Below, piece after piece: positions 13,455-47,549 of a DNA stretch of 64,000 nucleotides; the stretch's first letter is position 1; each line of letters begins with the position of its first letter. The notes beneath the pieces were generated by a model. That model saw nothing but the letters and a program-made list of their open reading frames with translations. It did not search any database and had not been told where the DNA came from. This stretch comes from Candidatus Pacearchaeota archaeon (lineage in GTDB: Archaea > Nanobdellota > Nanobdellia > Pacearchaeales > GW2011-AR1), in assembly GCA_041651235.1 (NCBI GenBank), contig JBAZJQ010000002.1:3434-67433 (forward strand), given 5' to 3'. Made by a program: the position numbers and the translations under genes.

Positions 13455-13838
13455 TCACCAAACTTCTATTTTTATTCCTGTATTTTCAAAATGCTTTTTA
13501 TTTCGAGTAACTAAAATTAGATTATTCATTTTTGCAAAACAAGCTATCATCAAGTCTATATTCTCTGTAATTTTTCCAATTTTACTTAATTTTGCATATT
13601 CTTTTCCATATTCTATACAGATATTTTCATTAAATTCCAGCAAAGTAAATGTATCTGTAAATTCTTTTATTAATCTTACTTTGATTTCCGAGTCTGAAGA
13701 AAGATATGCTCCTCGAAATAACTCGCATAAAGTTAAGGGGGTAATGAATACTTCATTTGAGACATTATTAAATTTAGAAATCGTTTCTTTATCTCCTCTT
13801 AAATAGTTTACAATTATATTTGTGTCTAGGCAGTACAT
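13455..13838 (-). CDS. vapC: PIN-domain ribonuclease toxin VapC
   Basis: 127 aa. It has the MYCLDTNIIV N-terminal acidic motif and the distal D/E residues typical of PIN. Its start overlaps the antitoxin stop. Confidence 0.8.
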   Translation of the reverse strand: MYCLDTNIIVNYLRGDKETISKFNNVSNEVFITPLTLCELFRGAYLSSDSEIKVRLIKEFTDTFTLLEFNENICIEYGKEYAKLSKIGKITENIDLMIACFAKMNNLILVTRNKKHFENTGIKIEVW

Positions 13839-14065
13839 TAAAATTTCACCTCTCTCAACTTAAAATTTTTTCTGTCTTTTTCTATATTATCCATTATTTT
13901 TCCCCATTCTTCATCATTCTTAAAAATTCCTGCAAATTTGCTTATATCTCTTTTCTTTTTCTTGCATTCAATTAATTCTACAACTATCTCTGAAAATGAT
14001 TTATTATCTTTTATTGATTTCAATCTATCATAAGCATCATTGGATAATGAGATTACTTTAACCAT
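13838..14065 (-). CDS. vapB: VapB-type antitoxin (DUF217-like)
   Basis: 75 aa. MVKVISLSNDAYDRLKSIKDNKSFSEIVVELIE matches the archaeal ISxSDxxYxxLxxxKxxxSFSExIxxL antitoxin pattern. Confidence 0.7.
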   Translation of the reverse strand: MVKVISLSNDAYDRLKSIKDNKSFSEIVVELIECKKKKRDISKFAGIFKNDEEWGKIMDNIEKDRKNFKLREVKF

Positions 14066-14686: not shown

Positions 14687-14914
14687 ATGAGAATACAAAC
14701 CCAAATACCTATATGTTACAATAAAGAAATAGCAAATGTAGATTTAATTGCATTGCAAAATGGAAAGTTTCTTTTATGGAATGATTCTCAAGAAAAGAAA
14801 GATGCGCATCCTAATTGGAGATATGTTATGTATAAATTAAATTCTGTTTGCCAGAAATGCCCCGGATATGATAATAAGTGTCCTTCATATATTACAAATG
14901 GAGAGTTAAAATGA
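14687..14914 (+). CDS. hypothetical small Cys-containing protein
   Basis: The ATG at 14687 lies 1 nt after the previous stop. MRIQTQIPICYNK...CQKCPGYDNKCPSY. Its stop overlaps the SLT ATG (ATGA). Confidence 0.5.
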   Translation: MRIQTQIPICYNKEIANVDLIALQNGKFLLWNDSQEKKDAHPNWRYVMYKLNSVCQKCPGYDNKCPSYITNGELK

Positions 14915-15630
14915 AATTTACTAATTATTTAACAAGAATTGGATTAGGAGTTGGATTGATTTTAGGTGGGGTTGGATTATTTAATGGAAATAGTTTAGAA
15001 GCTAAAGTTAATAAAACTGATAAAAAGGTTGTGAAATATGATGAATACAAATATGATTCATTAATTTTAAAAGAATCTCAAGAAACCTCACTAGATAAAT
15101 ATCTGATAAAGGGGCAAATAAAACAAGAATCTCGATTTAATCCTAATGCAAAATCTCCTGTTGGTGCAGTGGGATTATCTCAAATAATGCCAGATACAGC
15201 AAAAGAATTAGGATACAAACCAAATGAAATGTATGAACCTGGAAAAGCAATTGATGCTCAGACAAGATATATGAGGCAAATGTATGATTATAAAGAATTT
15301 GAAAAATATATTGGAGATGAAAAAACTAAACTTGCTTTAGCTTCTTATAATGCAGGTTATGGAAACATAAGACATGCAGTAAGAATAATTCAAAATGCAA
15401 GAAATGGAGAAAAGGAATATAAAATTACTAAAGGTTCTGGAAAAAAGAAAAAAGTAATCAGAGTTTTAAAAATAGAAAACTTAAAAGAATGTCCTGAAAA
15501 TTGGGATAATGGATTTTCAAAAGCATTAGAATTAGTTGCAGGAAAAAGAGCAGCTGAAACTCAAGATTATGTCAGCAAGGTAATAAGATACAGAGAAGAA
15601 TATTTGCTTGATGGCAAATCATTTAGATAA
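14911..15630 (+). CDS. secreted/membrane-anchored lytic transglycosylase (SLT domain, goose-lysozyme-like fold)
   Basis: N-terminal hydrophobic signal/anchor LTRIGLGVGLILGGVGLF. The catalytic-Glu motif IKQESRFNPNAKSPVGAVGLSQIMPDTA and a downstream ALASYNAGYGN are the classic family-1 SLT signatures. Confidence 0.8.
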   Translation: MKFTNYLTRIGLGVGLILGGVGLFNGNSLEAKVNKTDKKVVKYDEYKYDSLILKESQETSLDKYLIKGQIKQESRFNPNAKSPVGAVGLSQIMPDTAKELGYKPNEMYEPGKAIDAQTRYMRQMYDYKEFEKYIGDEKTKLALASYNAGYGNIRHAVRIIQNARNGEKEYKITKGSGKKKKVIRVLKIENLKECPENWDNGFSKALELVAGKRAAETQDYVSKVIRYREEYLLDGKSFR

Positions 15631-21708: not shown

Positions 21709-22620
21709 TTACATCCTTTCTAATATTTGTATTCTTTTATGAATTGGAGGATGAGTTGATAAGGCATTTTTAAAAGGATTTGATATAAATAATGGAGCAA
21801 CTGCTTTGCTTATTTTTTTGTTTTCTTGATTAATTCTTGTTGGAGTTAAAGATTCATTTTCAATTTTCTTTAAAGCTTTTATTAATCCTGTTGGACTTCT
21901 CGTGAATTTAACAGCAGAGGCATCTGCAACATATTCTCTTTTTCTTGAAATAGCTAGCTGAACTAGTTGAACAACTATTGGAGCCAGAATAGCAAGGGCA
22001 ACTCCTATAACCATTAAAATTGCACTTCCTTTGTTGTCTCTGTCATTTCCACCTCTAAACCACAGACTTCTTAAAAATATTTCAGAGATTATTGCAATCA
22101 TTCCAACCATAACAGCTGTTAGTGTCATAAATCTAATGTCATAGTTTGCGATGTGAGATAGTTCATGAGAAATAACTCCTTCTAATTCCTGCTTGTCTAA
22201 TTTTCTTAAAGCTCCTGTTGTAACACAGATAACAGAATGTTTTGGGTCTCTTCCTGATGCAAATGCATTAATCTGCCCATTTTCCATAACATATAATTTA
22301 GGTTTAGGCATTCCAGAGGCAAGACAGATTCCCTCTACAATATTATGATATTGTCCATATTCTGTTTCGGATGCTTGTTTTGCATTAACAGAAACTAGTG
22401 CAATTTTGTCTGCATTATAATAACTGATTAATAAATAAGATATTGAAACTATAATTGAAAGGATCATAATTATAAAGAAAAAATCTGGAGCAAATATCTT
22501 TCCAATTACATAGCCTAAAATTAAAAATATAATAAATATAACTGAAATTAAGAGAAAGCTTTTCCATTTGTTTCTAGAAATTTGGTCGTGAAATGAGATT
22601 CTATCCATTGTTTTTTCCAT
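21709..22620 (-). CDS. htpX: HtpX-family M48 membrane zinc protease
   Basis: Two N-terminal TMs, HExxH as VISHELSHIANYD, two further TMs, and a distal Glu region (REYVADA). Confidence 0.85.
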   Translation of the reverse strand: MEKTMDRISFHDQISRNKWKSFLLISVIFIIFLILGYVIGKIFAPDFFFIIMILSIIVSISYLLISYYNADKIALVSVNAKQASETEYGQYHNIVEGICLASGMPKPKLYVMENGQINAFASGRDPKHSVICVTTGALRKLDKQELEGVISHELSHIANYDIRFMTLTAVMVGMIAIISEIFLRSLWFRGGNDRDNKGSAILMVIGVALAILAPIVVQLVQLAISRKREYVADASAVKFTRSPTGLIKALKKIENESLTPTRINQENKKISKAVAPLFISNPFKNALSTHPPIHKRIQILERM

Positions 22621-22820: not shown

Positions 22821-23408
22821 TTAATTTTTATCAAAAAATCTTAAAGAGAAAAACAATATAATTAATCCTAAAACATATCCTGCAATTACATCACTGAACC
22901 AATGAACATTCAGGTAAATTCTGCTTAATCCTATTAATAATATTAAAATAATATTAACTGCTATGAATAATATCTTTAGAAATTTGTTTTTTATTTTATC
23001 TTTAAACAAATAAATAATTAGAGAGAAAAATATTAAAGAACCAAGAGCATGCAAACTTGGAAAACTAGGATCTGTTCTTTGAATTAAAGAGTTCAAAGGC
23101 CTTTGTCTTTGGATTATGAATTTAATTAGTTCTCCTAAACCTGCACTAAAAATTAAAATAACTGAACTAATAATCCCCTTTCTATATTCTTTTCTAAGAA
23201 CTAAAATAACAAACAAAATCAGACCTAATGTAATCATTGTATTTGTATTTCCAATGTAAGTTATTATTGAAAAAAAACCTGTTAAAAATGGATTCCATAA
23301 ACTAGGAATAGCTTTGCTTATTGAATTATCTAGTTGAAAACTAAATATGAATAATATAATTATTGATGCGATAGATAATAAGAATATAATAAGTTTATTT
23401 GATTTCAT
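22821..23408 (-). CDS. PAP2-family membrane phosphatase
   Basis: Motifs KFIIQRQRP, PSLHA and SRIYLNVHWFSDV correspond to PAP2 KxxxxxxRP / PSGH / SRxxxxxHxxxD. Confidence 0.75.
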   Translation of the reverse strand: MKSNKLIIFLLSIASIIILFIFSFQLDNSISKAIPSLWNPFLTGFFSIITYIGNTNTMITLGLILFVILVLRKEYRKGIISSVILIFSAGLGELIKFIIQRQRPLNSLIQRTDPSFPSLHALGSLIFFSLIIYLFKDKIKNKFLKILFIAVNIILILLIGLSRIYLNVHWFSDVIAGYVLGLIILFFSLRFFDKN

Positions 23409-23443: not shown

Positions 23444-24112
23444 TTATGCAGATAAATAATCCATTATTTCCTGTCTTTGTTCTGGTGTAAAGGAGATAGA
23501 TAATTTTCTTAAAGCTTCATTTTGAATCTGTCTTATCCTTTCTTTAGTATATCCTATTTCTACTCCTAATTGTTTTAAAGTTTTAATTTCTTTTGCTAAA
23601 AATCTTTGTTGAATAACGTGTTGTTCTAAGAGAGATAAATTCTCTAATTTATCTCTAATTAGTTTTGTATGATCTTGATTTTCTAATAATTGAGGGATAT
23701 TGGATCCAAGATTTTTTTTATCTATCTTATCTAACCTTTTTTTTCTTAGATACTCTGTTTTTTCTTTAGACCTTAATCTTGATAATCTTTGGTCTATTAC
23801 TCTATAAGCAAGCCCTGAAAATTTAAACCCCCTAGTATAATCGTATTTTTTTGAAGCATAGAAGATAGCGTCTGCTGCTTCTGAAAGAGCTTCATTAAAA
23901 TCTACACATGGGCAAGATTTCAAAAAATAATAGGTTCTGCATACTAATAACCCTAAATAAGATTTTATTAGTTTTTCTTGAGCTAAAGTGCTAACTCCAT
24001 CTAATCCATATTTAATTAAAAAACCAAGTGCTAATTCTTCTTCTAATTTTAAATTTGGTGTTCTTTCTCCAGCAAATAGTTTTAATTCACTATTAAGATA
24101 TTTATTTTTCAT
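23444..24112 (-). CDS. sigma-70 family protein (regions 2 and 4 recognisable)
   Basis: Region-2-like DFNEALSEAADAIFYASKKYDYTRGFKFSGLAYRVIDQRLSR (compare DLIQEG..GL..A..KFD..RG.KFSTYA.WWIRQ.I.R). Region-4-like LSLLEQHVIQQRFLAKEIKTLKQLGVEIGYTKERIRQIQNEALRKL (compare TL.EIG...GVTRERIRQIE..ALRKL). Confidence 0.7.
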   Translation of the reverse strand: MKNKYLNSELKLFAGERTPNLKLEEELALGFLIKYGLDGVSTLAQEKLIKSYLGLLVCRTYYFLKSCPCVDFNEALSEAADAIFYASKKYDYTRGFKFSGLAYRVIDQRLSRLRSKEKTEYLRKKRLDKIDKKNLGSNIPQLLENQDHTKLIRDKLENLSLLEQHVIQQRFLAKEIKTLKQLGVEIGYTKERIRQIQNEALRKLSISFTPEQRQEIMDYLSA

Positions 24113-24154
24113 TAAATTATTTCTTAACTATTGCTTAAAAGTTTAACTATAGAA

Positions 24155-24715
24155 CTAATCCAACTCACTAAAGTTAACTTTAGGAACAACTCTCTCTGAT
24201 GCAGCTATTTCTAAATAAGGTTTTTCTTTAAATCCAAACATGTTAAAAAATAGTTTTCCAGGGAAAGTTCTGCTTGAATTATTATAATCCATTATGGAAT
24301 CGTTATAATATTGTCTTGCATAAGCAACTTTGTCTTCAATTGCTGATAATTCCTGTTGCAAATGTAAGAAGTTCTCATTTGCTCTTAAATTAGGATAGTT
24401 TTCAGAAACAGCAAATATTGTTTTTAATGCTGATTGCAGTTTATCTCCTGCTTTTACTTTAGAAGGCATATCTGTTGCTTTTAAGAAAGCTGTTCTAGCA
24501 GAAGTTACTGCAGTTAAAACTGATTTTTCATATTTAGCATAACCTTTAACTGTTTCCATTAAATTAGGAACTAAATCTGCTCTTTTCTTTAATTGAACAT
24601 CAATTTGAGCTAAAGAATTATCAATTCTATTTCCTAAAGTTGCAAATCTATTATAATAAGCAATAAAAATTATGATTATTAATACAACTAGTCCCCCAAT
24701 AATCCATCCTATCAT
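24155..24715 (-). CDS. lemA: LemA family membrane protein
   Basis: N-terminal TM followed by YYNRFATLGNRIDNSLAQIDVQLKKRADLVPNL...AVSENYPNLRANENF..., the canonical LemA pattern. Confidence 0.85.
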   Translation of the reverse strand: MIGWIIGGLVVLIIIIFIAYYNRFATLGNRIDNSLAQIDVQLKKRADLVPNLMETVKGYAKYEKSVLTAVTSARTAFLKATDMPSKVKAGDKLQSALKTIFAVSENYPNLRANENFLHLQQELSAIEDKVAYARQYYNDSIMDYNNSSRTFPGKLFFNMFGFKEKPYLEIAASERVVPKVNFSELD

Positions 24716-24901: not shown

Positions 24902-25285
24902 ATGGATGCTTTACAGAAAAGAGTTATTGCGACAGTATTAATAGGAGCAGTGTTAATTTTTTCTTTTTTTGCAATTACAGAGGCGATAACAAAATATACT
25001 GGATATTCTGTATTGCCTGATGAAAATGATTTTGAAAAGTGCTTAAAGGAACAAGATGTTGTCCTGTATATTAATACTAATGATGTTTCAGCAACATTAA
25101 ATACAATTCAATTAAGAGATAATATTAATGATTTTAAAATATTTAATTGCCTAAGGGATAATGCTCCGTGTATAGAAAAAGGAATAACCTCTTTTCCTTC
25201 ATGGGGAGTTAATAATAAAATTGTTTCTGAGGATATCTCTATGGATAGATTATTTGAGTTATCTGGATGTAAATTAGAAATCTAA
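24902..25285 (+). CDS. membrane-anchored thioredoxin-fold-like protein (degenerate)
   Basis: An N-terminal TM, then a layout resembling the VKOR-associated Trx-like domain (...FNCLRDNAPCIEKGITSFPSWGVNNK...LSGC). The CxxC is not canonical. Confidence 0.4.
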   Translation: MDALQKRVIATVLIGAVLIFSFFAITEAITKYTGYSVLPDENDFEKCLKEQDVVLYINTNDVSATLNTIQLRDNINDFKIFNCLRDNAPCIEKGITSFPSWGVNNKIVSEDISMDRLFELSGCKLEI

Positions 25286-25304
25286 ATTAATAAAAGGAGG
25301 AAAA

Positions 25305-25484
25305 ATGATTAGTGTTGATAAAAAAACTTGTATTGGATGCGGCGCATGTGCTTCAATATGTCCAGAAGTCTTTGAAATGAAAGAAACTGCTGATGGACTT
25401 AAATCAGTTGTTAAAAAGCAATCAAAAGCTTCTTGTGTAAAAGAGGCTGCAGATTCATGCCCAGTTAATGCAATCAATATTTAA
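25305..25484 (+). CDS. fdx: small ferredoxin (single [4Fe-4S]/[3Fe-4S]-type), below the ORF-track cutoff
   Basis: MISVDKKTCIGCGACASICPEVFEMKETADGLKSVVKKQSKASCVKEAADSCPVNAINI (59 aa). It has the CxxCxxC...CP motif plus a distal ...CP. A GGAGG lies 5 nt upstream of the ATG. The track only shows a spurious antisense ORF here. Confidence 0.75.
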   Translation: MISVDKKTCIGCGACASICPEVFEMKETADGLKSVVKKQSKASCVKEAADSCPVNAINI

Positions 25485-26168: not shown

Positions 26169-27626
26169 ATGAAAAGAGGATGGGAGTTATTGGGTGTTAT
26201 AATTTTGTTCAGTATTAGTTTGATTTTTGCTGCACATACCGTTCAGACCAACCTTGATGCAACTTCTTTTACTGCAAATGAAAGTATTGTTTTTATCTAT
26301 AATGTAAGTGTAAATAATACTGACACATTAATAACTGCAAATATTTCTCAAGTCAATATAACTTTCCCAAGTCAATTTATTTTTATTAATCTAACTAATG
26401 GAACTAATGCGCCGGTAACATTTACTAATACCTCATCAGTTTTAACTTGGAGTAATGATACTGGAGCAGTTATGAATATTACTAGAAAATACTTCTGGTT
26501 CACATTAAATAGTTCATTACCTGGCAATTATAATCTTACAATAACTACTACTAATGTATCTGGCACTTTTAATACTAATATTTCTATTAGAATAAATGAT
26601 ACAGGGGTTCCAAATACAGTTGAATTTGCAAGTCCAACTAATGTAACTCGTTCTAATTTATCTCAGACTTATATAGATTATAATATAAGTGCTCCTGCAA
26701 CTATGGCTGCTTTTAGTAGAATTGCTATTAATTTATATAATTCTACAAATGATGTAGCTAATAGTTCAGTAAATTCCAGTACTACTGCAACAGGTAGGTT
26801 TACAGGTTTAGCTGATGGGATTTATTATCTTAATGCAACAATTAATAATACTCATGCTGATAAAAATACAAGTATAACAAGAATAATAACAATAGATACT
26901 ACTGCTCCAACACTTACACATGCATGTACTCCTGGAACTCTTAATGAAGGAGATGTTTTAACTTGTACTTGCACTGGAACAGATGCTACTAATATATCCA
27001 TTGGACCAACTTATGTTGTTAATCCAGATACAGTAACAGCAGGAACTTATACTACAATTTGTAATGCAACAGATCATGCAGGAAATACTGCTTCTTCAAG
27101 TATAAGTTATGAAGTAGTGTCTTCTTCAGGAGCAAATACAGGTTCTTCTGGGGGAACAACCTATTCCAAAACAATTCTTGAGAATACCAAAGAGTTTAGT
27201 GAAATTAAAACATTAACACAAGAATTACAATCAAAAGAAAGAGTAAAACTTAAAATAAATGGACAAAACCATTATGTAGGTATTGCTTCATTAAGTACCA
27301 CTAGTGCAACAATTGAAATAACTTCAACTCCTATAAAAGAAGCATTTAATATTGGAGAAGAAAAGAAGTTTGACCTTAATGATGATGGATACTATGATAT
27401 TTATGTTAAACTAAATTCAATTACAGCAGGTAAAGCTAGTGTTACAATGAATTCGATATATGAAAAGGTAACTACAGAGACTTCTTCTACTTCAACTGAA
27501 CCTAGCGATAGTGACGGATTAAATGCAGAATCAGGAAGTATGGCTTGGATTTGGATTGTAATTGGCTTAGTAGTTCTTATTGCTGCTGGTGCAGGTTATA
27601 AATACAAAGATAAATTAGGATTCTAA
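26169..27626 (+). CDS. cell-surface glycoprotein-like protein (signal peptide, NxS/T-rich beta domains, HYR-like module, C-terminal TM anchor)
   Basis: Dozens of N-x-S/T sequons. DTTAPTLTHACTPG...CTCTGTDATN...CNATDHAGNTASSSISYEV resembles a hyalin-repeat-like domain. C-terminal anchor WIWIVIGLVVLIAAGAGY. Confidence 0.6.
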   Translation: MKRGWELLGVIILFSISLIFAAHTVQTNLDATSFTANESIVFIYNVSVNNTDTLITANISQVNITFPSQFIFINLTNGTNAPVTFTNTSSVLTWSNDTGAVMNITRKYFWFTLNSSLPGNYNLTITTTNVSGTFNTNISIRINDTGVPNTVEFASPTNVTRSNLSQTYIDYNISAPATMAAFSRIAINLYNSTNDVANSSVNSSTTATGRFTGLADGIYYLNATINNTHADKNTSITRIITIDTTAPTLTHACTPGTLNEGDVLTCTCTGTDATNISIGPTYVVNPDTVTAGTYTTICNATDHAGNTASSSISYEVVSSSGANTGSSGGTTYSKTILENTKEFSEIKTLTQELQSKERVKLKINGQNHYVGIASLSTTSATIEITSTPIKEAFNIGEEKKFDLNDDGYYDIYVKLNSITAGKASVTMNSIYEKVTTETSSTSTEPSDSDGLNAESGSMAWIWIVIGLVVLIAAGAGYKYKDKLGF

Positions 27627-34819: not shown

Positions 34820-34835
34820 CCACAATTTCTTGTGG
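34820..34835. promoter_or_regulatory. NrdR box 1 (16-bp palindrome CCACAATTTCTTGTGG)
   Basis: Perfect 6-4-6 palindrome matching the bacterial NrdR-box consensus acaCwAtATaTwGtgt. Confidence 0.6.
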
Positions 34836-34850
34836 GTAAAAAAAGAGGAT

Positions 34851-34866
34851 ATACAAGATATTGTAT
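34851..34866. promoter_or_regulatory. NrdR box 2 (16-bp palindrome ATACAAGATATTGTAT)
   Basis: Perfect 6-4-6 palindrome. It is 31 bp centre-to-centre from box 1 (15-bp gap), the canonical tandem spacing. It ends 14 nt before the nrdR ATG. Confidence 0.6.
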
Positions 34867-34880
34867 GTTCTTGCGATATC

Positions 34881-40134: not shown

Positions 40135-40344
40135 ATGCACATATTAGAGCCCACACACACAAAATTGAAACCTGAAGAGGTTAAGAGATTACTTGATGAG
40201 CTAAATATTTCTCTTGCACAATTACCCAAAATTAAAATTATTGACGCTGCATTACCTAAAGATGCAGAAATTTCTGATGTTTATAAAATTGAAAGAGCTG
40301 TTAATGGGAAGAAAACAATTTATTATAGGGTGGTGTCAGTATGA
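40135..40344 (+). CDS. rpoH: RNA polymerase subunit H (Rpo5)
   Basis: 69 aa. HILEPTHTKLKPEEVKRLLDELNISLAQLPKIKIIDAALP...YRVV is the RpoH/Rpb5 C-domain pattern. It overlaps the rpoB start. Confidence 0.85.
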   Translation: MHILEPTHTKLKPEEVKRLLDELNISLAQLPKIKIIDAALPKDAEISDVYKIERAVNGKKTIYYRVVSV

Positions 40345-43300
40345 GGCTAGAAAATTCTAAAGAGGAACATGTGCTTGTAAAAAAATATCTTAAAGACCAT
40401 AGTCTAGTTGAATCGAATATTACTTCTTTTAATAATTTTATAAAATTCAGAATGCAGGAAATTGTAAATGAAATCAGTGAGTCAATTCCTAAAGAAGACA
40501 CAGAAATCACCCTTGGAAAAATTAAGGTCGGAAAACCAGAGATTACTGAAGCTGATGGTAGCACAAATTTATTAACTCCTACTGAAGCAAGAATAAGAGG
40601 TTTAACTTATTCTGCACCGGTTTTCTTAGAAATAACAATAAAACAAGAAGGACAATTAGAAAGTCATGATGTTGAAATAGGAAGAATCCCTATTTTAATA
40701 AAAAGTGAAATTTGCAATCTTAATGGATTATCCAGAGAAGAATTAATAAAAGAATATGTTGATCCTTTGGATTTTGGGGGATATTTTATTATTAATGGAA
40801 ATGAAAGAGTGATGGTTATGACAGAAGATCTTGCAGAAAATCAGGCATTTATTGAAAATTCAAAAAATAAAATAATGCTTAGATTGTTTTCAAAAAGAGG
40901 AAGCTACAGAATTCCCATTTCAATAACAGAAACACCTGAAGGAATTGTAGAAGTTTCTTTTTCAAGATTTAAAAATATTCCAGTTATTATTATTTTGAAA
41001 GCATTAGGGTTAACAAAAGAAAGTGAGATTGCAGAACATATTGGAAAAGAAAATGATAGCTTAATTGTTAATTTATATGAATACACTGCTATCCAAAATC
41101 AGGAAGAAGCTATGATGGCTATTGCTGAACAAACTTCTTTACAAGGAACAAAAAAAGAAATTTTAGACAGAATAAAACAAAGACTTGATTCCTATTTCTT
41201 ACCTCACATTGGATTAAAAAAAGAAGACAGATTAAAAAAAGCAATTACTTTATGTAAATTTGTAAAACAGTTTTATATTGCAAAAGAAACTCCGGATAGT
41301 TTAACAGATAAAGATCATTATGCTAACAAAAGAGTTAGAATGTCTGGGGATTTACTATCTGATTTATTTAGAGTAAATCTTAATATCCTAGTAAGAGATA
41401 TACAGCACTCATTACAGAAAATTCAAAAGAGGAAAAAATTCTATTCTATAAAATCAATTGCGAAATCAACATTATTTACTCACAGAGTTGAAAGTGCAAT
41501 TGCAACTGGTAACTGGATTGGAGAAAGAACAGGAGTTACTCAGAATATGGATAAAACAAATTATCTTAAAATCTTATCACAATTACAAAGAGTTTCAAGT
41601 ATGCTTCCTGGAGAACAAGAAAATTTCTTAGCAAGAACATTGCATCCAACACACTATGGAAGATTTTGTCCTGTTGAAACTCCTGAAGGAACTGAAATTG
41701 GTTTAAGAAAAAATTTAGCATTATTAGCAAAAATTTCTACAAGAACTGATTTAGATGATGAAAGTTTAATCAAAATTCTAGTTAATCTTGGAATGAAAAG
41801 AGAGATTATTAAAGAAGTTGGTAAAGATGTTTTCTTCAATGGAAAATTTATTGGACATGTTGAAAATTATAGCAAATTAATAGGAGATTTAAAGAAAATG
41901 AGAAGAGATGCGCAATTGCCAATTGAATTAAGTATCAGATACGATAAAGTTTTAGGAATTGTTCTTTTGTCAACAGAAGAAGGAAGAGTAATGAGACCTT
42001 TGATTATTATTGAAAATGGAAAATCAAAATTAACAGAAGAACATCTTCAATTAGTAAGAGAAAATTCTTTAGCTTGGCAGGATTTATTGAAAGGCGGAAT
42101 TATTGAATATTTAGATGCTGCTGAAGAAGAAAATTCATTAGTTGCATTAAATCCTGAAGAGATTACCGAAGAACATACTCACCTTGAAATTGATAAAATT
42201 GATTTGTTTGGAGTTGTTACTTCAATTGTTCCTTATGCAAATTATGACCAGAGTTCAAGATTAATCAGGGGAAGCAAAACTCAAACTCAGTCATTAGGAC
42301 TATATGCTGCTAATTTCTTTACAAGAATAGATACTAATGTCTCTATACTGCACTATCCACAAAAACCAATTGTTAGAAGTTTTGTTTATGATACTTTAGA
42401 TATTCATCCAGCAGGACAAAATGTAGTTGTTGCTGTTATGACTCATGACGGATATAATATGGAAGATGCTTTAATATTAAATCAAGGTTCTTTAGATAGA
42501 GGATTAGGAAGAAGTACTTATTTTAGGCCCTATGGTTCTACTGAACTAAATTATGCTGGGGGATTAAAAGATCAGATTACAATACCTGAAAAAGATGTTT
42601 CAGGATACAGAACAGAGGATAGTTACAGATTCTTAGAAGATGATGGTATTACTTATCCTGAAGCTCAATTAACCTCTGGGGAAGCTGTTATTGGAAAAAC
42701 TAGTCCTCCTAAATTCTTGTCAGAAGTAAGAGAAATTTCAATTAAAGCAAGAAAAGAAGCAAGCTCGGTAATAAGACAAGAAGAACAAGGAACAGTTGAT
42801 AGCGTATTTATTACAGAAGATAATCAAGGAAATAAAATTATCCAAGTTAAAACAAGAGATTTAAGAGTCCCTGAACTGGGAGATAAATTTGCAACTGCAC
42901 ACGGACAGAAGGGAGTTATTGGTGCAATTATTCCTGAAAATGATGTTCCATTTACATCAAGAGGAGTTAAACCAGATGTTATATTTAATCCTCACTCAAT
43001 TCCTGGAAGAATGACTGTTGGCTTCTTAATTGAATTACTTGCTGGAAAAGTTGGAAGCTTATCTGGAAAAATTATGGATGGTACTGGATTCTCTGGACAA
43101 AAAGTAGAAAGTCTAGAAGAAGAATTAAAGAGTTTAGGATTTAGAGAAGATGGAAAAGAAACAATCTATCATGGAGTTAGTGGTAAGATGATGAGAGTTA
43201 AGATTTATGTTGGAAGTATGTATTATTTGAAACTTGGAAGAATGGTAAAGAACTTATTGCATGCAAGAGCATCTGGAAAAGTTACATTATTAACAAGACA

Positions 43301-43610
43301 ACCAATTGAAGGAAGATCAAAGGGAGGGGCATTGAGATTAGGAGAAATGGAACAACAGGCATTAGTTGCTCATGGAGCATCATTATTATTAAAAGAAAGA
43401 TATGATTCAGATAAAGTTATTATTAATATTTGCAGTAAATGTGGTGGAGTTGCAATTGAAGACACAATAAGAGGAAAAATGTTTTGCCCTCTTTGCAATA
43501 GCCAGGAAATTGAACCAATTGAATTATCTTATGCATTTAAATTATTAGCAGATGAAATTCAATCTATGCATATTAAAACTAAATTTAATTTGAAGAATAA
43601 GTACGAATAA
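40341..43610 (+). CDS. rpoB: RNA polymerase subunit B (unsplit)
   Basis: 1089 aa. Conserved blocks include GYFIINGNERV, RFCPVETPEG, GYNMEDA, KFATAHGQKG, LGEMEQQA and the C-terminal Zn ribbon CSKCGG...CPLC. Confidence 0.95.
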   Translation: MRLENSKEEHVLVKKYLKDHSLVESNITSFNNFIKFRMQEIVNEISESIPKEDTEITLGKIKVGKPEITEADGSTNLLTPTEARIRGLTYSAPVFLEITIKQEGQLESHDVEIGRIPILIKSEICNLNGLSREELIKEYVDPLDFGGYFIINGNERVMVMTEDLAENQAFIENSKNKIMLRLFSKRGSYRIPISITETPEGIVEVSFSRFKNIPVIIILKALGLTKESEIAEHIGKENDSLIVNLYEYTAIQNQEEAMMAIAEQTSLQGTKKEILDRIKQRLDSYFLPHIGLKKEDRLKKAITLCKFVKQFYIAKETPDSLTDKDHYANKRVRMSGDLLSDLFRVNLNILVRDIQHSLQKIQKRKKFYSIKSIAKSTLFTHRVESAIATGNWIGERTGVTQNMDKTNYLKILSQLQRVSSMLPGEQENFLARTLHPTHYGRFCPVETPEGTEIGLRKNLALLAKISTRTDLDDESLIKILVNLGMKREIIKEVGKDVFFNGKFIGHVENYSKLIGDLKKMRRDAQLPIELSIRYDKVLGIVLLSTEEGRVMRPLIIIENGKSKLTEEHLQLVRENSLAWQDLLKGGIIEYLDAAEEENSLVALNPEEITEEHTHLEIDKIDLFGVVTSIVPYANYDQSSRLIRGSKTQTQSLGLYAANFFTRIDTNVSILHYPQKPIVRSFVYDTLDIHPAGQNVVVAVMTHDGYNMEDALILNQGSLDRGLGRSTYFRPYGSTELNYAGGLKDQITIPEKDVSGYRTEDSYRFLEDDGITYPEAQLTSGEAVIGKTSPPKFLSEVREISIKARKEASSVIRQEEQGTVDSVFITEDNQGNKIIQVKTRDLRVPELGDKFATAHGQKGVIGAIIPENDVPFTSRGVKPDVIFNPHSIPGRMTVGFLIELLAGKVGSLSGKIMDGTGFSGQKVESLEEELKSLGFREDGKETIYHGVSGKMMRVKIYVGSMYYLKLGRMVKNLLHARASGKVTLLTRQPIEGRSKGGALRLGEMEQQALVAHGASLLLKERYDSDKVIINICSKCGGVAIEDTIRGKMFCPLCNSQEIEPIELSYAFKLLADEIQSMHIKTKFNLKNKYE

Positions 43611-43611
43611 A

Positions 43612-43776
43612 ATGGAAAATCAATGTCAATATCACCCTTGTATGAAATTAAAAGTATTAGCTCAATTAGGTATTGAAAAACCTGTAGAATGCCAACAATC
43701 ACATCAACAATGTGAAGAATATTGTAGAATAGAAACTTCACCAAGACAACCTATATTGGAAAGGGGAATTAATTAA
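43612..43776 (+). CDS. 54-aa Cys-rich ORF between rpoB and rpoA, below the ORF-track cutoff
   Basis: MENQCQYHPCMKLKVLAQLGIEKPVECQQSHQQCEEYCRIETSPRQPILERGIN (6 Cys). The ATG is 1 nt after the rpoB stop, and its own stop is 1 nt before the next ATG. Confidence 0.5.
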   Translation: MENQCQYHPCMKLKVLAQLGIEKPVECQQSHQQCEEYCRIETSPRQPILERGIN

Positions 43777-43777
43777 A

Positions 43778-44023
43778 ATGATACAACAAAATCAAACACA
43801 AACACAAACAACAGAGGCACGATGTCCCTATTTAGGATGTAAAACTTGGCAGAGATTATTTGATAGAGATGCTGAAGAAGCAAATAATCAGAAAGATAAA
43901 CGATGCACAACTCCATTACATAAAAGCTGTTCAACATACAGACAATTAGAAGAACAAAAAAGTTCAGATATAAAAAATTATGTTTATCAAACATATCCTC
44001 AATTAAATGGAGCATCTCAATAA
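43778..44023 (+). CDS. 81-aa ORF between rpoB and rpoA
   Basis: MIQQNQTQTQTTEARCPYLGCKTWQRLF...KRCTTPLHKSCSTY... (4 Cys). Its stop is 1 nt before the rpoA ATG at 44025. Confidence 0.5.
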   Translation: MIQQNQTQTQTTEARCPYLGCKTWQRLFDRDAEEANNQKDKRCTTPLHKSCSTYRQLEEQKSSDIKNYVYQTYPQLNGASQ

Positions 44024-44024
44024 A

Positions 44025-47000
44025 ATGGCAATTAAACCAATAAAAAAACAAGTTGAAAGTTTGCAATTTACTTTATTTAGTCCAGATGAGATTAAAAAAG
44101 TCAGCAAAGCAAAAATAATAACTCCTGAATTATATGATGTAGATGGTTATCCTGTTGATGGAGGATTAATGGATTTAAGATTAGGAGCAATTGATCCTGG
44201 AGTTAGATGCAGAACTTGTGGTGGAAGATTAAAAGAATGTTTAGGACACCCAGGAAGCATTGATTTAGCAAGACCTGTTCTCCATATAAAATATATTGCA
44301 GTAGTTGAATTATTTTTGAGAAGCTATTGTTCTGAATGCCATAGATTAATGATTAAAGATAAAGATATGGAAAAATACAAAACAGCTTCTGCTAGATTAA
44401 AAAGAGCAAGAGATGCAAAAAAATGTCCTCATTGTCAAGCAGAACAAGAAAGAGTTAAATTAGAAAAACCAAGTACATTCAGAATAGGTAAAAGGAGAAT
44501 TTTCCCTGGAGAAATAAGAGATAGATTAGTAAGAATTTCGGATGAAGAAGCTAAATTAGCTGGGATTAATCCAAAAATATTCAGACCTGAATGGTCTATT
44601 TTAACATTATTATTAGTTCCTCCTGTAACAGTAAGACCTTCAATTACTTTAGAATCAGGTGAAAGAAGTGAAGATGATTTAACTCATAAATTATCAGATA
44701 TTATAAGAGCTAATCAAAGACTTTGGGAAAATTTGAATGCTGGAGCTCCAGAAGTTATTATTGAAGATTTATGGGATTTATTACAGTATCATATTACAAC
44801 ATTTTTTGATAATTCTATTTCAAAAATTCCTCCTGCAAGACATAGAAGCGGACAGCCATTAAAAACAATAACAGAAAGAATTAAAGGTAAAGAAGGAAGA
44901 ATAAGGCATAACCTTGCTGGAAAAAGAGTTAATTTCTCTTCGAGAACAGTTGTAAGCCCAGATCCTTCATTAAAGATTAATGAAATAGGAGTTCCAATAG
45001 AAGTTGCAGAAGTTTTAACTGTTAATGAAAAAGTTAATTCAACTAATATTGAAAAACTAAAAGAAATAATTAGAAAAAAAGAATACCCTGCTGCAAATTA
45101 TGTAATAAGGCCTGATGGAAGAAGAAAAAGAATTACAGAAGAATTAAAAGAAGAAATTTTAGCAGAATTACAACCAGGTTATGTTGTTGAAAGACAATTA
45201 ATTGATGGAGATGTCGTATTATTCAATAGACACCCTTCTCTTCACAGAGCAAGTTTAATGGCTCATTTTGTAAAAGTTCTTCCTTATAGAACATTTAGAA
45301 TGCACCCAGGTGCTGCACACCCTTATAATGCAGATTATGATGGAGATGAAATGAATATTCATGTCCCACAAACAGAAGAAGCAAGAGCAGAAGCAAAAAC
45401 TTTACTAGATGTTAATCAAAATTTATTCTCACCAAAAGATAACAGCAACTTACTAGGATGTAATGTGGATGCAGTTACTGGAGGATATTTACTAAGCAAA
45501 GGCGATTTAACTAATCAAGATACTGCTCAATTATTATATCAATCAGGAATTGATGTAAGATTAGCTGGAAAAAATATTAAAGGTAATGACATTATTTCAG
45601 AAATAATTCCTAAAGTAGATTACAAAGGGAAAACAAAGACAGGAGAAAATTTTATTATTGAAAATGGAAAAATTAAAGAAGGGGTTGTTGATGAAAATGT
45701 GTTTGGTGTTGAAGCAGGAGAATTTATGAAGACTCTTGATAAAGAATTTGGAAGAACTAAAACAATTGAAGTTCTTGAAAATGTTTTTAGATTAGGAACA
45801 AAATATCTTTCAAATCATGGATTTACAATTGCTGTTAATGATTTAGGTGTTAATGAAAGAGTTAAGAAAGCTACAGAAGATATTGTTATTGAAGCTGAAA
45901 ATGAAACTAAAAGACTAATTGAAGAATGGAAATTAGGAAAAATTGAGACAATTCCGGGTAAAAGTCCTGAAGAAACAAGGGAAATTAAAATTATGCAGAT
46001 ATTAAACAATACAAGAACTCAGGTAGGTAAGGTAATTAAAAAAGAATTCCCTCAATCAAATCCTATTAGTATTATGATGAATGCTGGTGCTGGAGGAAAT
46101 GTTCTTAATATCAGCCAGATGGCTTGTTTTGTTGGACAACAATCATTATGGGCAAAGAGAATTGGAATTGGATTCAGCAATAGAACTCTTAGCTTGTTTA
46201 AAGAGGGAGATTTAAGCCCTAAAGCAAAAGGATTTATCTATAATTCATTCTTAAAAGGATTACAACCATATGAATTCTTTTTTGGAGCAATGACAGGAAG
46301 AGATGCTCTGATGGATACTGCACTGAGAACTCCTAAATCTGGTTATTTATACAGAAGATTAGCAAATGCATTACAAGATATAAGAATAGAGTATGATAAA
46401 ACAGTAAGAGATGGTGCAGGAAGTATTATTCAGTTTAAATATGGTGATGATGGAAAAGATGTTTCTGTATTACACAAAGACAAAGAGATTGCTCCTGGAG
46501 AAGCAATTGGGATTATTACTGCTCAATCATTTGGGGAGCCTTCAACACAGATGGCGTTAAGTACATTCCATGCAGCAGGAGTTGCAGAAATGCAGGTTAC
46601 TCAAGGATTACCAAGATTAATTGAGATATTTGATGCTAGAAGAACTCCTTCAACTCCTGAAATGGAAATTTATCTTGATAAAGAACATAATAATGAAAAA
46701 GATGCAAAGATTATTGCTGAAAAAATACAAGAAGTTAAATTAATTGACATAACAAAAGAGATAAAAATTAATTTCAGTGAAAAGAGAATTGAAGCTGTTA
46801 TTGATACTAATGCTGTTAAGAGAGTTCATTCTTCAATTGAAAGCATTGCAGAAAAATTAAAAGAAAAAGTTAAAGGGAAAATAAAAGCAAGCGGCAATTC
46901 AATTATATTTGGAGATAAAGAGTTAAATTTCAAAGAGTTATATAAATTAAAAGAAAAAATAAAAGATAGTATAATTTCTGGAATAAAAGGAATTGAACAA

Positions 47001-47549
47001 ATTCTAGTTGTTAATAGAGACAAAGATTATGTAATTTTAACTGCTGGAACTAATCTTAAAGAGATAATTGAGTTCAAAGGAATCGATAAAACTAGAACAG
47101 TAAGCAATGATATCCACGAAGTTTGTGATATTTTTGGAGTAGAGGTTGCCCGTGCAGTTATTATTAAAGAAATTGAAAAGGTTAAAAATTCTCAGGGACT
47201 AGAAATCAATGAGAGACATCTGAAATTAATTGCTGATGCAATGACCTCTGAAGGGGTTGTTAAGGGTATAACGAGAATGGGAATTATCTCGCAGAAATCA
47301 TCTATACTTGCAAGAGCAAGTTTTGAAACTCCAATAAAACAATTTATCAATGCTACATTAAAAGATAATAAAGATGAATTAAATTCAGTTATTGAAAATA
47401 TAATTTTGAATCAGCCAGTTCCTGTTGGTACTGGACTTCCTGGCTTATTAGTTGAAGTTACTGGTCCTTTATCAGACAAGAAACAAAAATCAATTAAAGC
47501 TGTTGAGAGTTTAACCAAGAAAACAAAAGAAACAACAGGAAAAAAGTAA
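44025..47549 (+). CDS. rpoA: RNA polymerase subunit A, fused A'+A'' in one ORF
   Basis: All of the following lie in a single frame: Zn motif CRTCGGRLKECLGHPG, catalytic NADYDGDEMN, bridge helix GRDALMDTALRTPKSGYLYRRLANALQD, and trigger-loop block AQSFGEPSTQMALSTFHAAGV followed by GLPRLIEIFDAR. An alternative start at 44007 would overlap the upstream ORF. Confidence 0.9.
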   Translation: MAIKPIKKQVESLQFTLFSPDEIKKVSKAKIITPELYDVDGYPVDGGLMDLRLGAIDPGVRCRTCGGRLKECLGHPGSIDLARPVLHIKYIAVVELFLRSYCSECHRLMIKDKDMEKYKTASARLKRARDAKKCPHCQAEQERVKLEKPSTFRIGKRRIFPGEIRDRLVRISDEEAKLAGINPKIFRPEWSILTLLLVPPVTVRPSITLESGERSEDDLTHKLSDIIRANQRLWENLNAGAPEVIIEDLWDLLQYHITTFFDNSISKIPPARHRSGQPLKTITERIKGKEGRIRHNLAGKRVNFSSRTVVSPDPSLKINEIGVPIEVAEVLTVNEKVNSTNIEKLKEIIRKKEYPAANYVIRPDGRRKRITEELKEEILAELQPGYVVERQLIDGDVVLFNRHPSLHRASLMAHFVKVLPYRTFRMHPGAAHPYNADYDGDEMNIHVPQTEEARAEAKTLLDVNQNLFSPKDNSNLLGCNVDAVTGGYLLSKGDLTNQDTAQLLYQSGIDVRLAGKNIKGNDIISEIIPKVDYKGKTKTGENFIIENGKIKEGVVDENVFGVEAGEFMKTLDKEFGRTKTIEVLENVFRLGTKYLSNHGFTIAVNDLGVNERVKKATEDIVIEAENETKRLIEEWKLGKIETIPGKSPEETREIKIMQILNNTRTQVGKVIKKEFPQSNPISIMMNAGAGGNVLNISQMACFVGQQSLWAKRIGIGFSNRTLSLFKEGDLSPKAKGFIYNSFLKGLQPYEFFFGAMTGRDALMDTALRTPKSGYLYRRLANALQDIRIEYDKTVRDGAGSIIQFKYGDDGKDVSVLHKDKEIAPGEAIGIITAQSFGEPSTQMALSTFHAAGVAEMQVTQGLPRLIEIFDARRTPSTPEMEIYLDKEHNNEKDAKIIAEKIQEVKLIDITKEIKINFSEKRIEAVIDTNAVKRVHSSIESIAEKLKEKVKGKIKASGNSIIFGDKELNFKELYKLKEKIKDSIISGIKGIEQILVVNRDKDYVILTAGTNLKEIIEFKGIDKTRTVSNDIHEVCDIFGVEVARAVIIKEIEKVKNSQGLEINERHLKLIADAMTSEGVVKGITRMGIISQKSSILARASFETPIKQFINATLKDNKDELNSVIENIILNQPVPVGTGLPGLLVEVTGPLSDKKQKSIKAVESLTKKTKETTGKK

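Follow-up and report, generated by a model that had tools for sequence, protein, structure and literature searches.

An optional, divergent sigma-70-family gene at a fixed position between lemA and htpX in Candidatus Pacearchaeota

The sets of transcription initiation factors used by bacteria and archaea are unrelated. A selected sigma gene in cells that have only an archaeal RNA polymerase therefore raises the question of what use is made of the sigma fold without its enzyme. This question is posed by a sigma-70-family open reading frame (ORF) in a 64-kb stretch of a Candidatus Pacearchaeota (DPANN) genome (the window), within which the only polymerase genes are the archaeal rpoH, rpoB and rpoA (40135..47549). 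Sigma-70 genes in DPANN archaea are not new in themselves, as they were previously reported on verified archaeal contigs as family fam00359 (Castelle et al. 2021, Front Microbiol; PMC8204110). In that study they were described as 'particularly prevalent in Woesearchaeota'; the expected archaeal factors were present, no anti-sigma factor was found for them, and how they work was called unclear. The gene studied here belongs to a neighbouring lineage, Pacearchaeota, and matches that description, as its product is classified as sigma-70 and its DPANN contig carries archaeal markers. LemA, HtpX and M48 are not mentioned in the main text of PMC8204110, and, within a limited literature search, three features described here appear to be new: the slot that the sigma gene occupies between lemA and htpX, its pattern of presence and absence, and the extreme divergence of its alleles. 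An earlier note on this DNA contained neither the published precedent nor the conserved slot, the optional presence or the divergence faster than that of the neighbours.

The ORF (Table 1) encodes an intact sigma-70-family protein that is cut down to regions 1.2-2 and 4 and lacks the sigma3 domain. The identical protein is listed at NCBI as 'sigma-70 family RNA polymerase sigma factor [Candidatus Pacearchaeota archaeon]', and both peptides quoted in the earlier note are present in it (KKYDYTRGFKFSGLAYRVIDQRLSR, aa 88-112; TLKQLGVEIGYTKERIRQIQNEALRKL, aa 178-204). The NCBIfam model TIGR02937 (sigma70-ECF superfamily) covers aa 44-205 with 47.7 bits (cut-off 42.9), and Pfam Sigma70_r4 (PF04545) scored 38 bits (cut-off 24.1). 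The profile search suggested in the earlier note thus succeeded for region 4 and for the superfamily model, while Sigma70_r2 (PF04542) alone stayed under its cut-off of 24 (19.3 bits, E=1e-3). A Pfam search gave no match to Sigma70_r3 (PF04539) in the ORF. In a phmmer search against PDB chains, the ORF matched SigA and RpoS in regions 2 and 4, with aa 41-115 aligning to SigA region 2. Likewise, the AlphaFold2 model (mean pLDDT 87.7) returned sigmaS, sigmaA and sigma32 from holoenzyme structures as top Foldseek matches, whole sigma chains among them, and its helices at aa 146-207 support region 4 beside the PDB sigma4 matches. Together, these searches bear out the earlier assignment to the sigma-70 family with regions 2 and 4.

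Table 1. Features of the sigma gene, its surroundings and the archaeal polymerase genes, in window coordinates
Feature	Position	Strand	Remarks
htpX, M48 zinc metalloprotease, 303 aa	21709..22620	-	conserved right flank of slot
PAP2 phosphatase, 195 aa	22821..23408	-	extra slot occupant with own TATA element
sigma-70-family ORF, 222 aa	23444..24112	-	ATG-to-stop; stop codon 23444-23446
C-terminal tail helix, aa 206-222	23447..23497	-	phmmer, structure model
sigma4 domain, aa 151-205	23498..23662	-	region 4.2 helix-turn-helix TKERIRQIQNEALRKL; profile, phmmer, structure model
linker at sigma3 position, aa 118-150 (33 aa)	23663..23761	-	structure model
sigma2 domain, aa 41-117	23762..23992	-	regions 2.1-2.4; profile, phmmer, structure model
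region 1.2-like helix, aa 21-36	24005..24052	-	LKLEEELALGFLIKYG; mean pairwise identity 0.52, nine alleles
putative archaeal BRE/TATA of sigma gene	24133..24144	-	AAAC TTTTAAGC; TATA part begins -28 from ATG
lemA, 186 aa	24155..24715	-	conserved left flank of slot
127-aa ORF + 59-aa 4Fe-4S ferredoxin	24902..25484	+	divergently transcribed
rpoH	40135-40344	+	archaeal RNA polymerase gene
rpoB, Rpb2-type	40341-43610	+	archaeal RNA polymerase gene
rpoA, Rpb1-type	44007-47549	+	archaeal RNA polymerase gene

The best sequence and structure matches of the ORF are primary-like sigma factors of groups 1-2 (RpoD/SigA, RpoS), with which region 1.2, regions 2.1-2.4 and 4.1-4.2 and the C-terminal tail (..IMDYL in the ORF, ..LRDYL in primary sigmas) can all be aligned. 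The region 4.2 residues E585, R586, R588 and Q589 are kept. Unlike these factors, the ORF has neither region 1.1 nor sigma3/3.2, and its linker is made up in the AlphaFold2 model of the tail of a long helix (aa 98-134) and a low-confidence loop (aa 135-143). Its equivalog scores lie far below the cut-offs (RpoS, 60.7 versus 378.7 bits; RpoD_Cterm, 56.5 versus 354), the equivalents of Q406, N409, Y430, W433 and W434 are changed, and the window encodes no bacterial core enzyme.

The small two-domain sigma2-linker-sigma4 architecture and the match to the TIGR02937 superfamily model resemble ECF (group 4) sigma factors, and the position beside membrane protein genes recalls ECF sigma/anti-sigma/protease modules. 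In contrast to ECF factors, however, region 4 of this allele matches PF04545 and not the ECF-type PF08281, and the sequences closest to the ORF are not ECF. Furthermore, no anti-sigma domain was found among the LemA, PAP2 and M48 neighbours, and separate predicted promoters take the place of an autoregulated operon.

In an exhaustive search, the nearest non-archaeal group (E = 1e-13 to 1e-9) was an uncharacterised bacterial sigma2-sigma4 family, one named member of which comes from Phycisphaerae, Planctomycetota. Its region 2.3 reads 'RGFKFSTYACRAILKSFSR' and its region 4.2 'TKERVRQIQNKAL'. Like the archaeal ORF, these proteins lack sigma3 and the WW pair and carry an 'RQIQN.AL' signature; they differ in an N-terminal extension of ~100 aa, in keeping Y430 and the region 2.2 Asn, and in their ordinary bacterial contexts (L014). 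When the 149 best hits were placed in a neighbour-joining tree, this family was not sister to the archaeal group, with weak support. The phylogeny proposed in the earlier note as a route to the donor clade did group the ten archaeal sigmas together, albeit in only 6 of 40 bootstraps and next to no stable sister group.

The gene is of bacterial ancestry and is fully adapted to the Candidatus Pacearchaeota genome. Its codon usage is host-like, and its GC3 (0.135) is that of rpoA (0.136). The tetranucleotide correlation of 3-kb windows with the whole window is 0.947-0.972 near the sigma gene, within an overall range of 0.939-0.987. Besides the polymerase genes, the window encodes aEF-2, aEF-1alpha and an archaea-specific ThrRS editing domain, and the archaeal genome and host-like composition claimed earlier are thereby confirmed. 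Two further contigs, one from ENA (104 kb) and one from Logan (8.4 kb), which may share one source population, are 100% identical to the window over the sigma-gene junctions. An assembly or binning chimera with a bacterial fragment on an archaeal contig, for which the earlier note would have expected a break near 21.7-24.7 kb, is effectively refuted, since there is no compositional break, the junctions are identical in these two other assemblies, and independent samples and lineages show the gene order again. Archaeal-type promoters on both sides of the sigma gene also speak against a chimera, and no point was found in its favor.

The sigma gene has a fixed slot between lemA and htpX, two conserved genes of membrane quality control. 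The earlier note had correctly placed it on the same strand between lemA and the PAP2 gene, which among the loci examined occupies the slot in this genome only. The order lemA, sigma, htpX was found in eight loci, although the relatives' sigmas are merely 26-47% identical. It occurs in the window, in L004, L005/L006 and L026/L027, and in L012/L013 (P0030), where synteny with the window is extended. The LemA-sigma part is visible on the P0143 contig and in L023, and L007 has the sigma gene, an 89-aa ORF and then M48. The 127-aa ORF and the ferredoxin neighbour the cluster in most related loci. A six-sequence alignment was too diverged for pattern scanning; the scan of GTDB species representatives returned two bacterial loci only and not the source genome itself, and that of JGI metagenomes mostly bacterial primary sigma factors plus the one new LemA-sigma fragment, L023.

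Among close relatives, the sigma gene is optional. In four loci with strong synteny and an HtpX 76% identical to that of the window (L033-L036), a 106-aa membrane ORF stands in place of sigma, and in the DPANN loci L028-L032 HtpX directly follows LemA and the slot is empty. A profile of the nine sigma alleles detected no sigma elsewhere in the L033-L036 loci or elsewhere in the window. The slot contents seen thus comprise nothing, a membrane ORF, sigma, sigma with PAP2, and sigma with the 89-aa ORF. The lemA-htpX pair also exists without sigma in bacteria: in Streptococcus pneumoniae, htpX (SPD_1138) and lemA (SPD_1139) carry consecutive locus tags and show similar fold changes within one expression table. 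As relatives that lack sigma keep the same pair, the pair does not need sigma.

These neighbours were considered as partners of the sigma protein. Neither LemA as an anti-sigma factor nor HtpX as a dedicated sigma protease is supported, as in the pair L012/L026 LemA is 95% and HtpX 96% identical while sigma is 29% identical, and both also occur without sigma. Variation in sigma is not mirrored in LemA or HtpX, so that a specific protein-protein partnership is unsupported. A literature search found no mechanistic account of LemA function.

All genes in the slot have their own predicted archaeal-type BRE/TATA promoter, and ordinary TATA promoters precede all neighbouring genes. A TTTWWAWW motif begins at -29/-30 in 11 of the 38 genes of the window. 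As the putative element of the sigma gene is of this host type and is spaced from the ATG as is usual for leaderless transcripts, the gene is probably transcribed by the archaeal machinery. The bacterial pattern TTGACA-N15-19-TATAAT had no match across the window (0.28 expected); the sigma ORF may have a specificity of its own. No shared operator or sigma-type promoter was detected upstream of lemA, sigma or htpX in six sigma-bearing loci, a weak test in AT-rich DNA, and a motif search upstream of lemA returned low-complexity or coding-sequence k-mers only.

The sigma alleles are much more diverged than the genes flanking them. Between L012 and L026, blastn homology ends ~20 nt short of the sigma start codon and picks up again at the sigma stop codon. 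Synonymous sites are saturated in every available pair, the flanks of L012/L026 excepted, and codon identity at conserved residues was therefore used in place of dN/dS. Codons differ at 53% of identical residues in sigma, compared with 24-27% in the flanks (Fisher p = 2.5e-5) and 43% expected at saturation. This pattern suggests replacement by a deeply diverged allele, a turnover argument drawn from this one closely related pair of loci. The tree of the sigmas is star-shaped and disagrees with that of HtpX. Pairwise dN/dS was 0.4-0.7 for sigma, a rough value given its saturated dS, and 0.05-0.27 for the flanks.

Weak constraint of this kind could indicate that the gene is left over from an old transfer, has no function and drifts neutrally in an intergenic slot that tolerates it, and the absence of the gene from close relatives and its relaxed canonical residues (see below) agree with such a reading. 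However, all 10 archaeal sigmas recovered are open, the nine complete ones measuring 203-242 aa. All alleles keep the motifs of regions 1.2, 2.3, 4.1 and 4.2; the 'ALGFLIKYG' motif of the region 1.2-like helix, for example, is common to the orthologues P0032, P0074 and P0152. Each gene also has a well-placed putative promoter, and codon usage is host-like. To judge from these alleles, full-length with a shared motif set although they have diverged to the neutral level or past it, the sigma gene is maintained by selection, and we consider a remnant very unlikely. The 'decaying transfer' of the earlier note is likewise contradicted by intact orthologues (200-240 aa) in the same slot at no fewer than eight loci, in a genome of ~29% GC, for which base composition gives an estimate of one stop codon about every 12 codons of random sequence.

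Variable cargo between conserved flanks and extreme allele divergence would also be expected of a conflict-driven cassette, in which the sigma-like protein helps to fend off viruses or mobile elements or is itself part of one; both the presence/absence pattern and the divergence would follow from an arms race. The MZA anti-phage system includes a sigma-70 domain, and there are weak matches between the ORF and MzaA. These are limited to the shared sigma regions, however, the MzaA models spanning 683-726 positions and the ORF just 222 aa. PADLOC gave no match for LemA, HtpX, PAP2 or the 127-aa neighbour. Phage sigmas (PHROG 351), to which the ORF has a profile match with E = 1.7e-18, are compact, fast-evolving sigma2-sigma4 proteins like the archaeal ORF, and P0003, its best relative by word index, comes from a phage-like contig and is nearly identical in region 4.2. 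In contrast, the context of the archaeal gene is cellular: among called genes with Pfam assignments, no integrase, viral or defence genes occur within 10 kb on either side. Two IMG/VR scans returned no relatives, and tblastn against GenBank phages one weak match only, to region 4. Targeted hypermutation by a diversity-generating retroelement is likewise not indicated, as no template/variable repeat pair was found within 21-26 kb. We consider a conflict-driven cassette unlikely.

Which of the functional surfaces of bacterial sigmas persist was assessed by comparing the 10 archaeal sequences (one partial) with 139 other top hits. In the ORF, the equivalents of sigma70 Y430, W433 and W434 are L101, R104 and V105, in agreement with the earlier note that the region 2.3 aromatics are missing. 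The core-binding motif of region 2.2 (D403, Q406, E407, N409) is not retained, the equivalents being E, S, E and A. Across alleles, the N409 equivalent is present in 1 of 10 archaeal sequences versus 77 of 139 others, that of Y430 in 4 of 10 versus 137 of 139, and that of R441 in 3 of 10 versus 119 of 139. In region 4.2, the Q589 equivalent is invariant among archaeal sigmas and that of R586 is found in 8 of 9; in some alleles, base-contacting residues are altered. Within sigma2, region 2.3 is the most conserved segment and regions 2.1, 2.2 and 2.4 are variable, helix 2.2, which binds core in bacteria, having a mean pairwise identity of 0.33. Positions that hardly vary in bacterial sigmas, where they serve core binding and -10 melting, are thus relaxed, whereas the fold and the helix-turn-helix motifs persist.

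This relaxation bears on whether the protein could be an effector that is delivered to, or acts on, a bacterial host cell and redirects its RNA polymerase as phage sigmas do. The protein is complete from sigma2 to sigma4 and akin to the compact phage sigmas, its hypervariability would be compatible with host-parasite co-evolution, and many Pacearchaeota are assumed to live as symbionts of unknown hosts. The known hosts of DPANN, however, are archaea, and neither a signal peptide nor a secretion-linked neighbour was seen on reading the sequence and the gene lists. Given also the relaxed core-binding and promoter-melting positions, such an effector is highly improbable. The earlier note had listed action on a bacterial partner's polymerase among possible roles, and this proposal gains no support from the N-terminus or from these positions.

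The same surfaces are relevant to a second proposal, that the archaeal polymerase uses the protein as an alternative initiation factor, sigma2 docking on the structurally universal clamp coiled-coil of Rpo1 and sigma4 guiding the enzyme to special promoters. It would make a natural hybrid of a bacterial sigma and an archaeal RNA polymerase. The clamp coiled-coil is the docking site of sigma2 in bacteria and is conserved in the archaeal polymerase, where TFE and Spt4/5 bind it. Sigma2 and region 1.2 are found in all alleles, region 2.3 being the best conserved segment, and the polymerase genes seen in the 64-kb window are archaeal only. On the other hand, conservation of helix 2.2 is poor, the equivalent of N409 has been lost, neighbouring genes all have ordinary TATA promoters, and close relatives dispense with the sigma gene. 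To our knowledge, the archaeal polymerase also has no beta-flap tip helix for sigma4. We therefore regard an initiation factor of this kind as quite unlikely. A more specific version seems improbable: in Pacearchaeota and Woesearchaeota, the lemA-htpX slot would carry sigma cassettes that can be exchanged, and their products, with sigma2 on the archaeal clamp coiled-coil, would redirect the polymerase to allele-specific promoters, a hybrid initiation system whose specificity could be swapped.

The explanation we favor, tentatively and with somewhat less than even confidence, is a domesticated accessory DNA-binding regulator that is not a canonical sigma factor, with allele exchange at the slot. 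The gene would be read from its own BRE/TATA by the archaeal transcription machinery, and its product would act inside the archaeal cell as an accessory sequence-specific transcription regulator and would not serve a bacterial core enzyme in canonical initiation. DNA would be bound by the sigma4 helix-turn-helix, and the sigma2/1.2 surface might help. Retention of sigma2/1.2, superfluous for a plain helix-turn-helix regulator, hints at contact with RNA polymerase or single-stranded DNA, which the DNA-binding-regulator model does not explain. The fixed position of the gene suggests a link to membrane/envelope homeostasis; the protein may control, or be controlled with, genes such as lemA, htpX and PAP2. 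Alleles would pass between lineages by recombination at the slot. Among the roles named in the earlier note, a 'repurposed DNA-binding regulator' would fit best.

As sigma genes of DPANN archaea have already been published, the present gene alone leaves the overall picture unchanged. What it adds are starting points: a fixed lemA/htpX address, optional presence, alleles that are swapped or diverge at the neutral rate or faster with fold and helix-turn-helix motifs preserved, and an ordinary archaeal promoter. The existence of natural sigma-plus and sigma-minus relatives makes a comparison possible. If the protein is a plain helix-turn-helix regulator, it would represent domain-level domestication after inter-domain transfer; if its target is the archaeal polymerase, it would connect the two initiation systems in a way rarely met in nature.

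The 222-aa ORF runs from ATG to stop and includes both peptides on which the earlier note had based its assignment to the sigma-70 family. In a Pfam search, it passed the curated cut-off for Sigma70_r4 (38 versus 24.1 bits) and fell slightly under that for Sigma70_r2 (19.3 versus 24 bits; E = 1e-3). The NCBIfam sigma-70 superfamily model TIGR02937 was passed (47.7 versus 42.9 bits) with a single alignment spanning aa 44-205, while the top equivalog models, RpoS, RpoD and RpoH, each scored far under their own cut-offs. Using phmmer against PDB sequences, aa 41-115 aligned with region 2 and aa 140-220 with region 4 of SigA/RpoS. An AlphaFold2 model built from a 51-sequence alignment (mean pLDDT, 87.7) was helical throughout, with a long helix (aa 98-134) followed by a low-confidence loop (aa 135-143) at the expected position of sigma3, and its top PDB matches were sigmaS, sigmaA and sigma32 in holoenzymes. 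Based on these profile, PDB and model matches, the ORF is a genuine sigma-70-family member with regions 2 and 4, as proposed, cut down to regions 1.2-2 and 4. Its C-terminal tail and region 1.2 resemble those of primary sigma factors.

The host is archaeal, as the earlier note had also claimed from its RNA polymerase: rpoH, an unsplit, Rpb2-type rpoB (1089 aa) and rpoA (1180 aa) are all encoded in the window, together with aEF-2, aEF-1alpha, S12, S7 and a ThrRS with an archaea-specific editing domain. In many archaea, rpoA is split into A' and A''; here, Rpb1 domains 1-5 lie within a single ORF. The spacing between rpoB and rpoA is about 400 bp. Neither the G+C nor the tetranucleotide profile of the window showed a break at 21-25 kb. 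GC3 was equal in the sigma gene (0.135) and rpoA (0.136), confirming the host-like composition reported previously, and contigs from ENA and Logan were 100% identical to the window over 20.7 and 8.4 kb, respectively. A chimeric contig is therefore effectively ruled out, the observation stands, and the chance of an assembly artefact is negligible. An identical protein is present in NCBI on a 146-kb contig ('MAG: sigma-70 family RNA polymerase sigma factor [Candidatus Pacearchaeota archaeon]').

Coordinates of features in the window
Feature	Position	Strand	Remarks
Pyruvate phosphate dikinase/PEP synthase-type enzyme	871-3699	+	C-terminal treble-clef zinc finger (PF23477)
VapB antitoxin/PIN-domain toxin pair	about 13455-14065		20048-20658 in L001
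SLT lytic transglycosylase	14878-15630	+	bacterial-looking
htpX (M48)	21709-22620	-	
PAP2 protein	22821-23408	-	bacterial-looking; resembles undecaprenyl-diphosphatase
Sigma ORF	23444-24112	-	222 aa
lemA	24155-24715	-	
LemA N-terminus	24698-24715	-	MIGWII
485-aa protein	26169-27626	+	N-x-T/S sequon-rich; N-terminal signal-like helix; C-terminal membrane anchor
NrdR repressor	34830-35312	+	bacterial-type; Zn-ribbon and ATP-cone
Class II ribonucleotide reductase	35309-38464	+	start overlapped by nrdR
rpoH	40135-40344		
rpoB	40341-43610	+	
rpoA	44007-47549	+	
FmrO-family 16S rRNA methyltransferase	55050-55868	-	bacterial-looking

When 1.84 billion cluster representatives were searched exhaustively by phmmer with the window sigma as query, 4925 matched at E <= 0.001; apart from the query itself, only P0030 (35% identity) was better than 1e-15. 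About ten of the top matches were archaeal-type relatives: short (198-242 aa), lysine/asparagine/isoleucine-rich, and 24-47% identical to the query and among themselves. Every one of these with a sufficiently long contig occupies the same address. In the loci of P0030 (L012/L013), P0074 (L005/L006) and P0137 (L026/L027), one strand carries a ferredoxin gene and a ~128-aa ORF, and the other lemA, sigma and M48/htpX, in that order. P0032 (L004) has lemA, sigma and M48, with RtcB and archease replacing the ferredoxin pair upstream; LemA-sigma (P0143), LemA with the sigma N-terminus (L023) and sigma followed by an 89-aa ORF and M48 (P0037, L007) were also found. L012 and the window share a longer gene order (NifU, DUF1858, cysteine desulfurase, HTH_5 regulator, DUF2238, ferredoxin and the 128-aa ORF), and the window alone has an extra PAP2 phosphatase between sigma and htpX.

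The nearest non-archaeal relatives belong to an uncharacterised bacterial sigma2-sigma4 family (region 2.3, 'FSTYACRAIL'; region 4.2, 'RQIQNKAL'), with one named member from Phycisphaerae and another on a 252-kb bacterial contig; one further relative lies on a phage-like contig. The ten archaeal proteins grouped in a neighbour-joining tree, but in 6 of 40 bootstraps and with an unstable sister group, and a single ancestry among these archaea is better supported by the common slot between lemA and htpX than by the tree.

The lemA-htpX pair also occurs without sigma. In Streptococcus pneumoniae D39, htpX (SPD_1138) and lemA (SPD_1139) carry consecutive tags and have similar fold changes in one expression table. 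A search with the window HtpX yielded >120 clusters at 66-77% identity, the named ones being Pacearchaeota, Nanoarchaeia or Nanoarchaeota, and slot content was inspected for two. P0407 (69% identity; widespread, TARA ocean samples included) has LemA followed directly by HtpX across a 24-bp gap, and P0300 (Pacearchaeota; 76% identity and, in a small tree, the nearest relative of the window's HtpX) carries a 106-aa three-helix membrane ORF in place of sigma. A profile of nine sigma alleles found no second sigma in the P0407 or P0300 loci or in the window. The sigma gene is thus optional and the cargo of the slot variable. In the sigma-less marine relatives L028-L032, a shorter, 756-aa version of the window's dikinase-type enzyme adjoins lemA-htpX.

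The sigma alleles are extremely divergent. Between pairs of loci, LemA is 55-77% and HtpX 62-76% identical, sigma only 26-40%, and the sigma tree is star-like and at odds with the HtpX tree. L012 and L026, which are found together in JGI sample 3300005915 and were each assembled from other samples as well, share 95% (LemA), 96% (HtpX) and 29% (sigma) identity. Homology between their DNA sequences ends about 20 nt short of the sigma start codon; none is detectable within the ORF, and it returns at the sigma stop codon, which directly adjoins the TATA element of htpX. Nei-Gojobori estimates were dS 0.49-0.65 and dN 0.03 for the flanks and dN 0.70 for sigma; as such figures are inflated by alignment error, codons were counted at identical residues instead. 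These differed at 53% (32/60) in sigma and 24-27% in the flanks (Fisher p = 2.5e-5), with about 43% expected at saturation. Synonymous saturation at conserved residues implies that the two alleles diverged before their flanks split, which for this single close pair makes replacement by a deeply diverged allele more likely than accelerated amino-acid change by itself. A conflict-driven cassette, which such alleles in a variable slot bring to mind, appears unlikely; no template/variable repeat indicating targeted hypermutation was present.

The first ~240 nt of htpX adjoining the non-homologous ORF (L012 8748-8972) are 96-98% identical between L012 and L026, and the remainder of the gene 82-92%; the explanation may be a recombination tract or 5'-end constraint. 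In trees covering the window, L012, L026, L004, L005, L029 and L033, the LemA of L033 is nearest L012/L026 (69%) and its HtpX nearest the window's (76%), a mismatch hinting at a recombination event between these flanks of the slot.

Among the nine alleles, mean pairwise identity was highest in region 2.3 (0.56), the region 1.2-like helix (0.52) and region 4.2 (0.42), and low in regions 2.1 (0.26), 2.2 (0.33) and 2.4 (0.19) and the linker (0.16). In the archaeal set (ten sequences, one partial), constraint is relaxed at canonical positions (sigma70 numbering) that are near-invariant in 139 other top matches: equivalents of N409 (1/10 versus 77/139), Y430 (4/10 versus 137/139), R441 (3/10 versus 119/139) and K597 (4/9 versus 128/139) are often lost. 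The substitutions first noticed in region 2.3 are real, the equivalents of Y430, W433 and W434 being L, R and V in the window protein. The fold and HTH motifs are retained, with Q589 invariant and R586 kept in 8/9. This pattern is consistent with release from the constraint of a bacterial core enzyme; a hybrid initiation factor acting with the archaeal polymerase, for which the retained sigma2 and region 1.2 might speak, seems rather improbable. Each of the ten recovered archaeal sequences has an open frame, and nine are full-length. At the G+C content of these genomes, about 29%, random sequence would by our estimate contain a stop about every 12 codons. Selection therefore maintains the protein. 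The 'decaying transfer' of the earlier note is inconsistent with these frames and, even with the relaxed positions, a neutral remnant is improbable.

In all loci, a BRE/TATA-like element (AAAC TTTWWAWA) lies about 28-30 nt before the ATG of each slot gene; the putative promoter of the sigma gene is AAAC-TTTTAAGC, with its TATA part at -28. In 11 of 38 window genes, the TATA-like motif TTTWWAWW begins at -29/-30 relative to the ATG, a spacing characteristic of leaderless archaeal promoters that indicates mostly leaderless transcripts and tight promoter phasing. The window contains no TTGACA-N15-19-TATAAT site. An effector aimed at a bacterial partner is very improbable. We tentatively prefer, at somewhat less than even chances, a gene transcribed from an archaeal promoter whose product would be an accessory DNA-binding regulator, working in the archaeal cytoplasm and using sigma4 as its HTH; the position of the gene suggests that it is connected with membrane or envelope homeostasis. 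Against this regulator, the lemA upstream regions showed no common operator-like motif, the lemA/htpX flanks do not co-vary with sigma, and the retention of sigma2 and region 1.2 is unaccounted for.

The window's LemA has positive charges after a single N-terminal hydrophobic helix, which suggests an N-out, C-in topology with a cytoplasmic helical domain. Its N-terminus, MIGWII, is also that of Listeria LemA, where this hexapeptide is known as an H2-M3-presented epitope. The sequon-rich 485-aa protein had no Pfam match and is probably a glycosylated surface protein. This archaeal genome thereby encodes, in NrdR, a second transcription regulator of bacterial type, here located beside the gene that it usually controls; NrdR is likewise paired with a reductase in L012, there of the NrdD type.

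Sigma-70 genes of DPANN archaea have been reported, as 'particularly prevalent in Woesearchaeota', with mis-binning excluded, no anti-sigma factors found and the mechanism called unclear (Castelle et al. 2021, PMC8204110); the main text of that paper makes no mention of LemA, HtpX or M48. The finding is thus real and correctly identified, yet its headline, a sigma-70 gene in a DPANN archaeon, is already published. What appears to be new is the behaviour of the sigma gene's locus, and interest would be much higher if the protein turned out to contact the archaeal polymerase.
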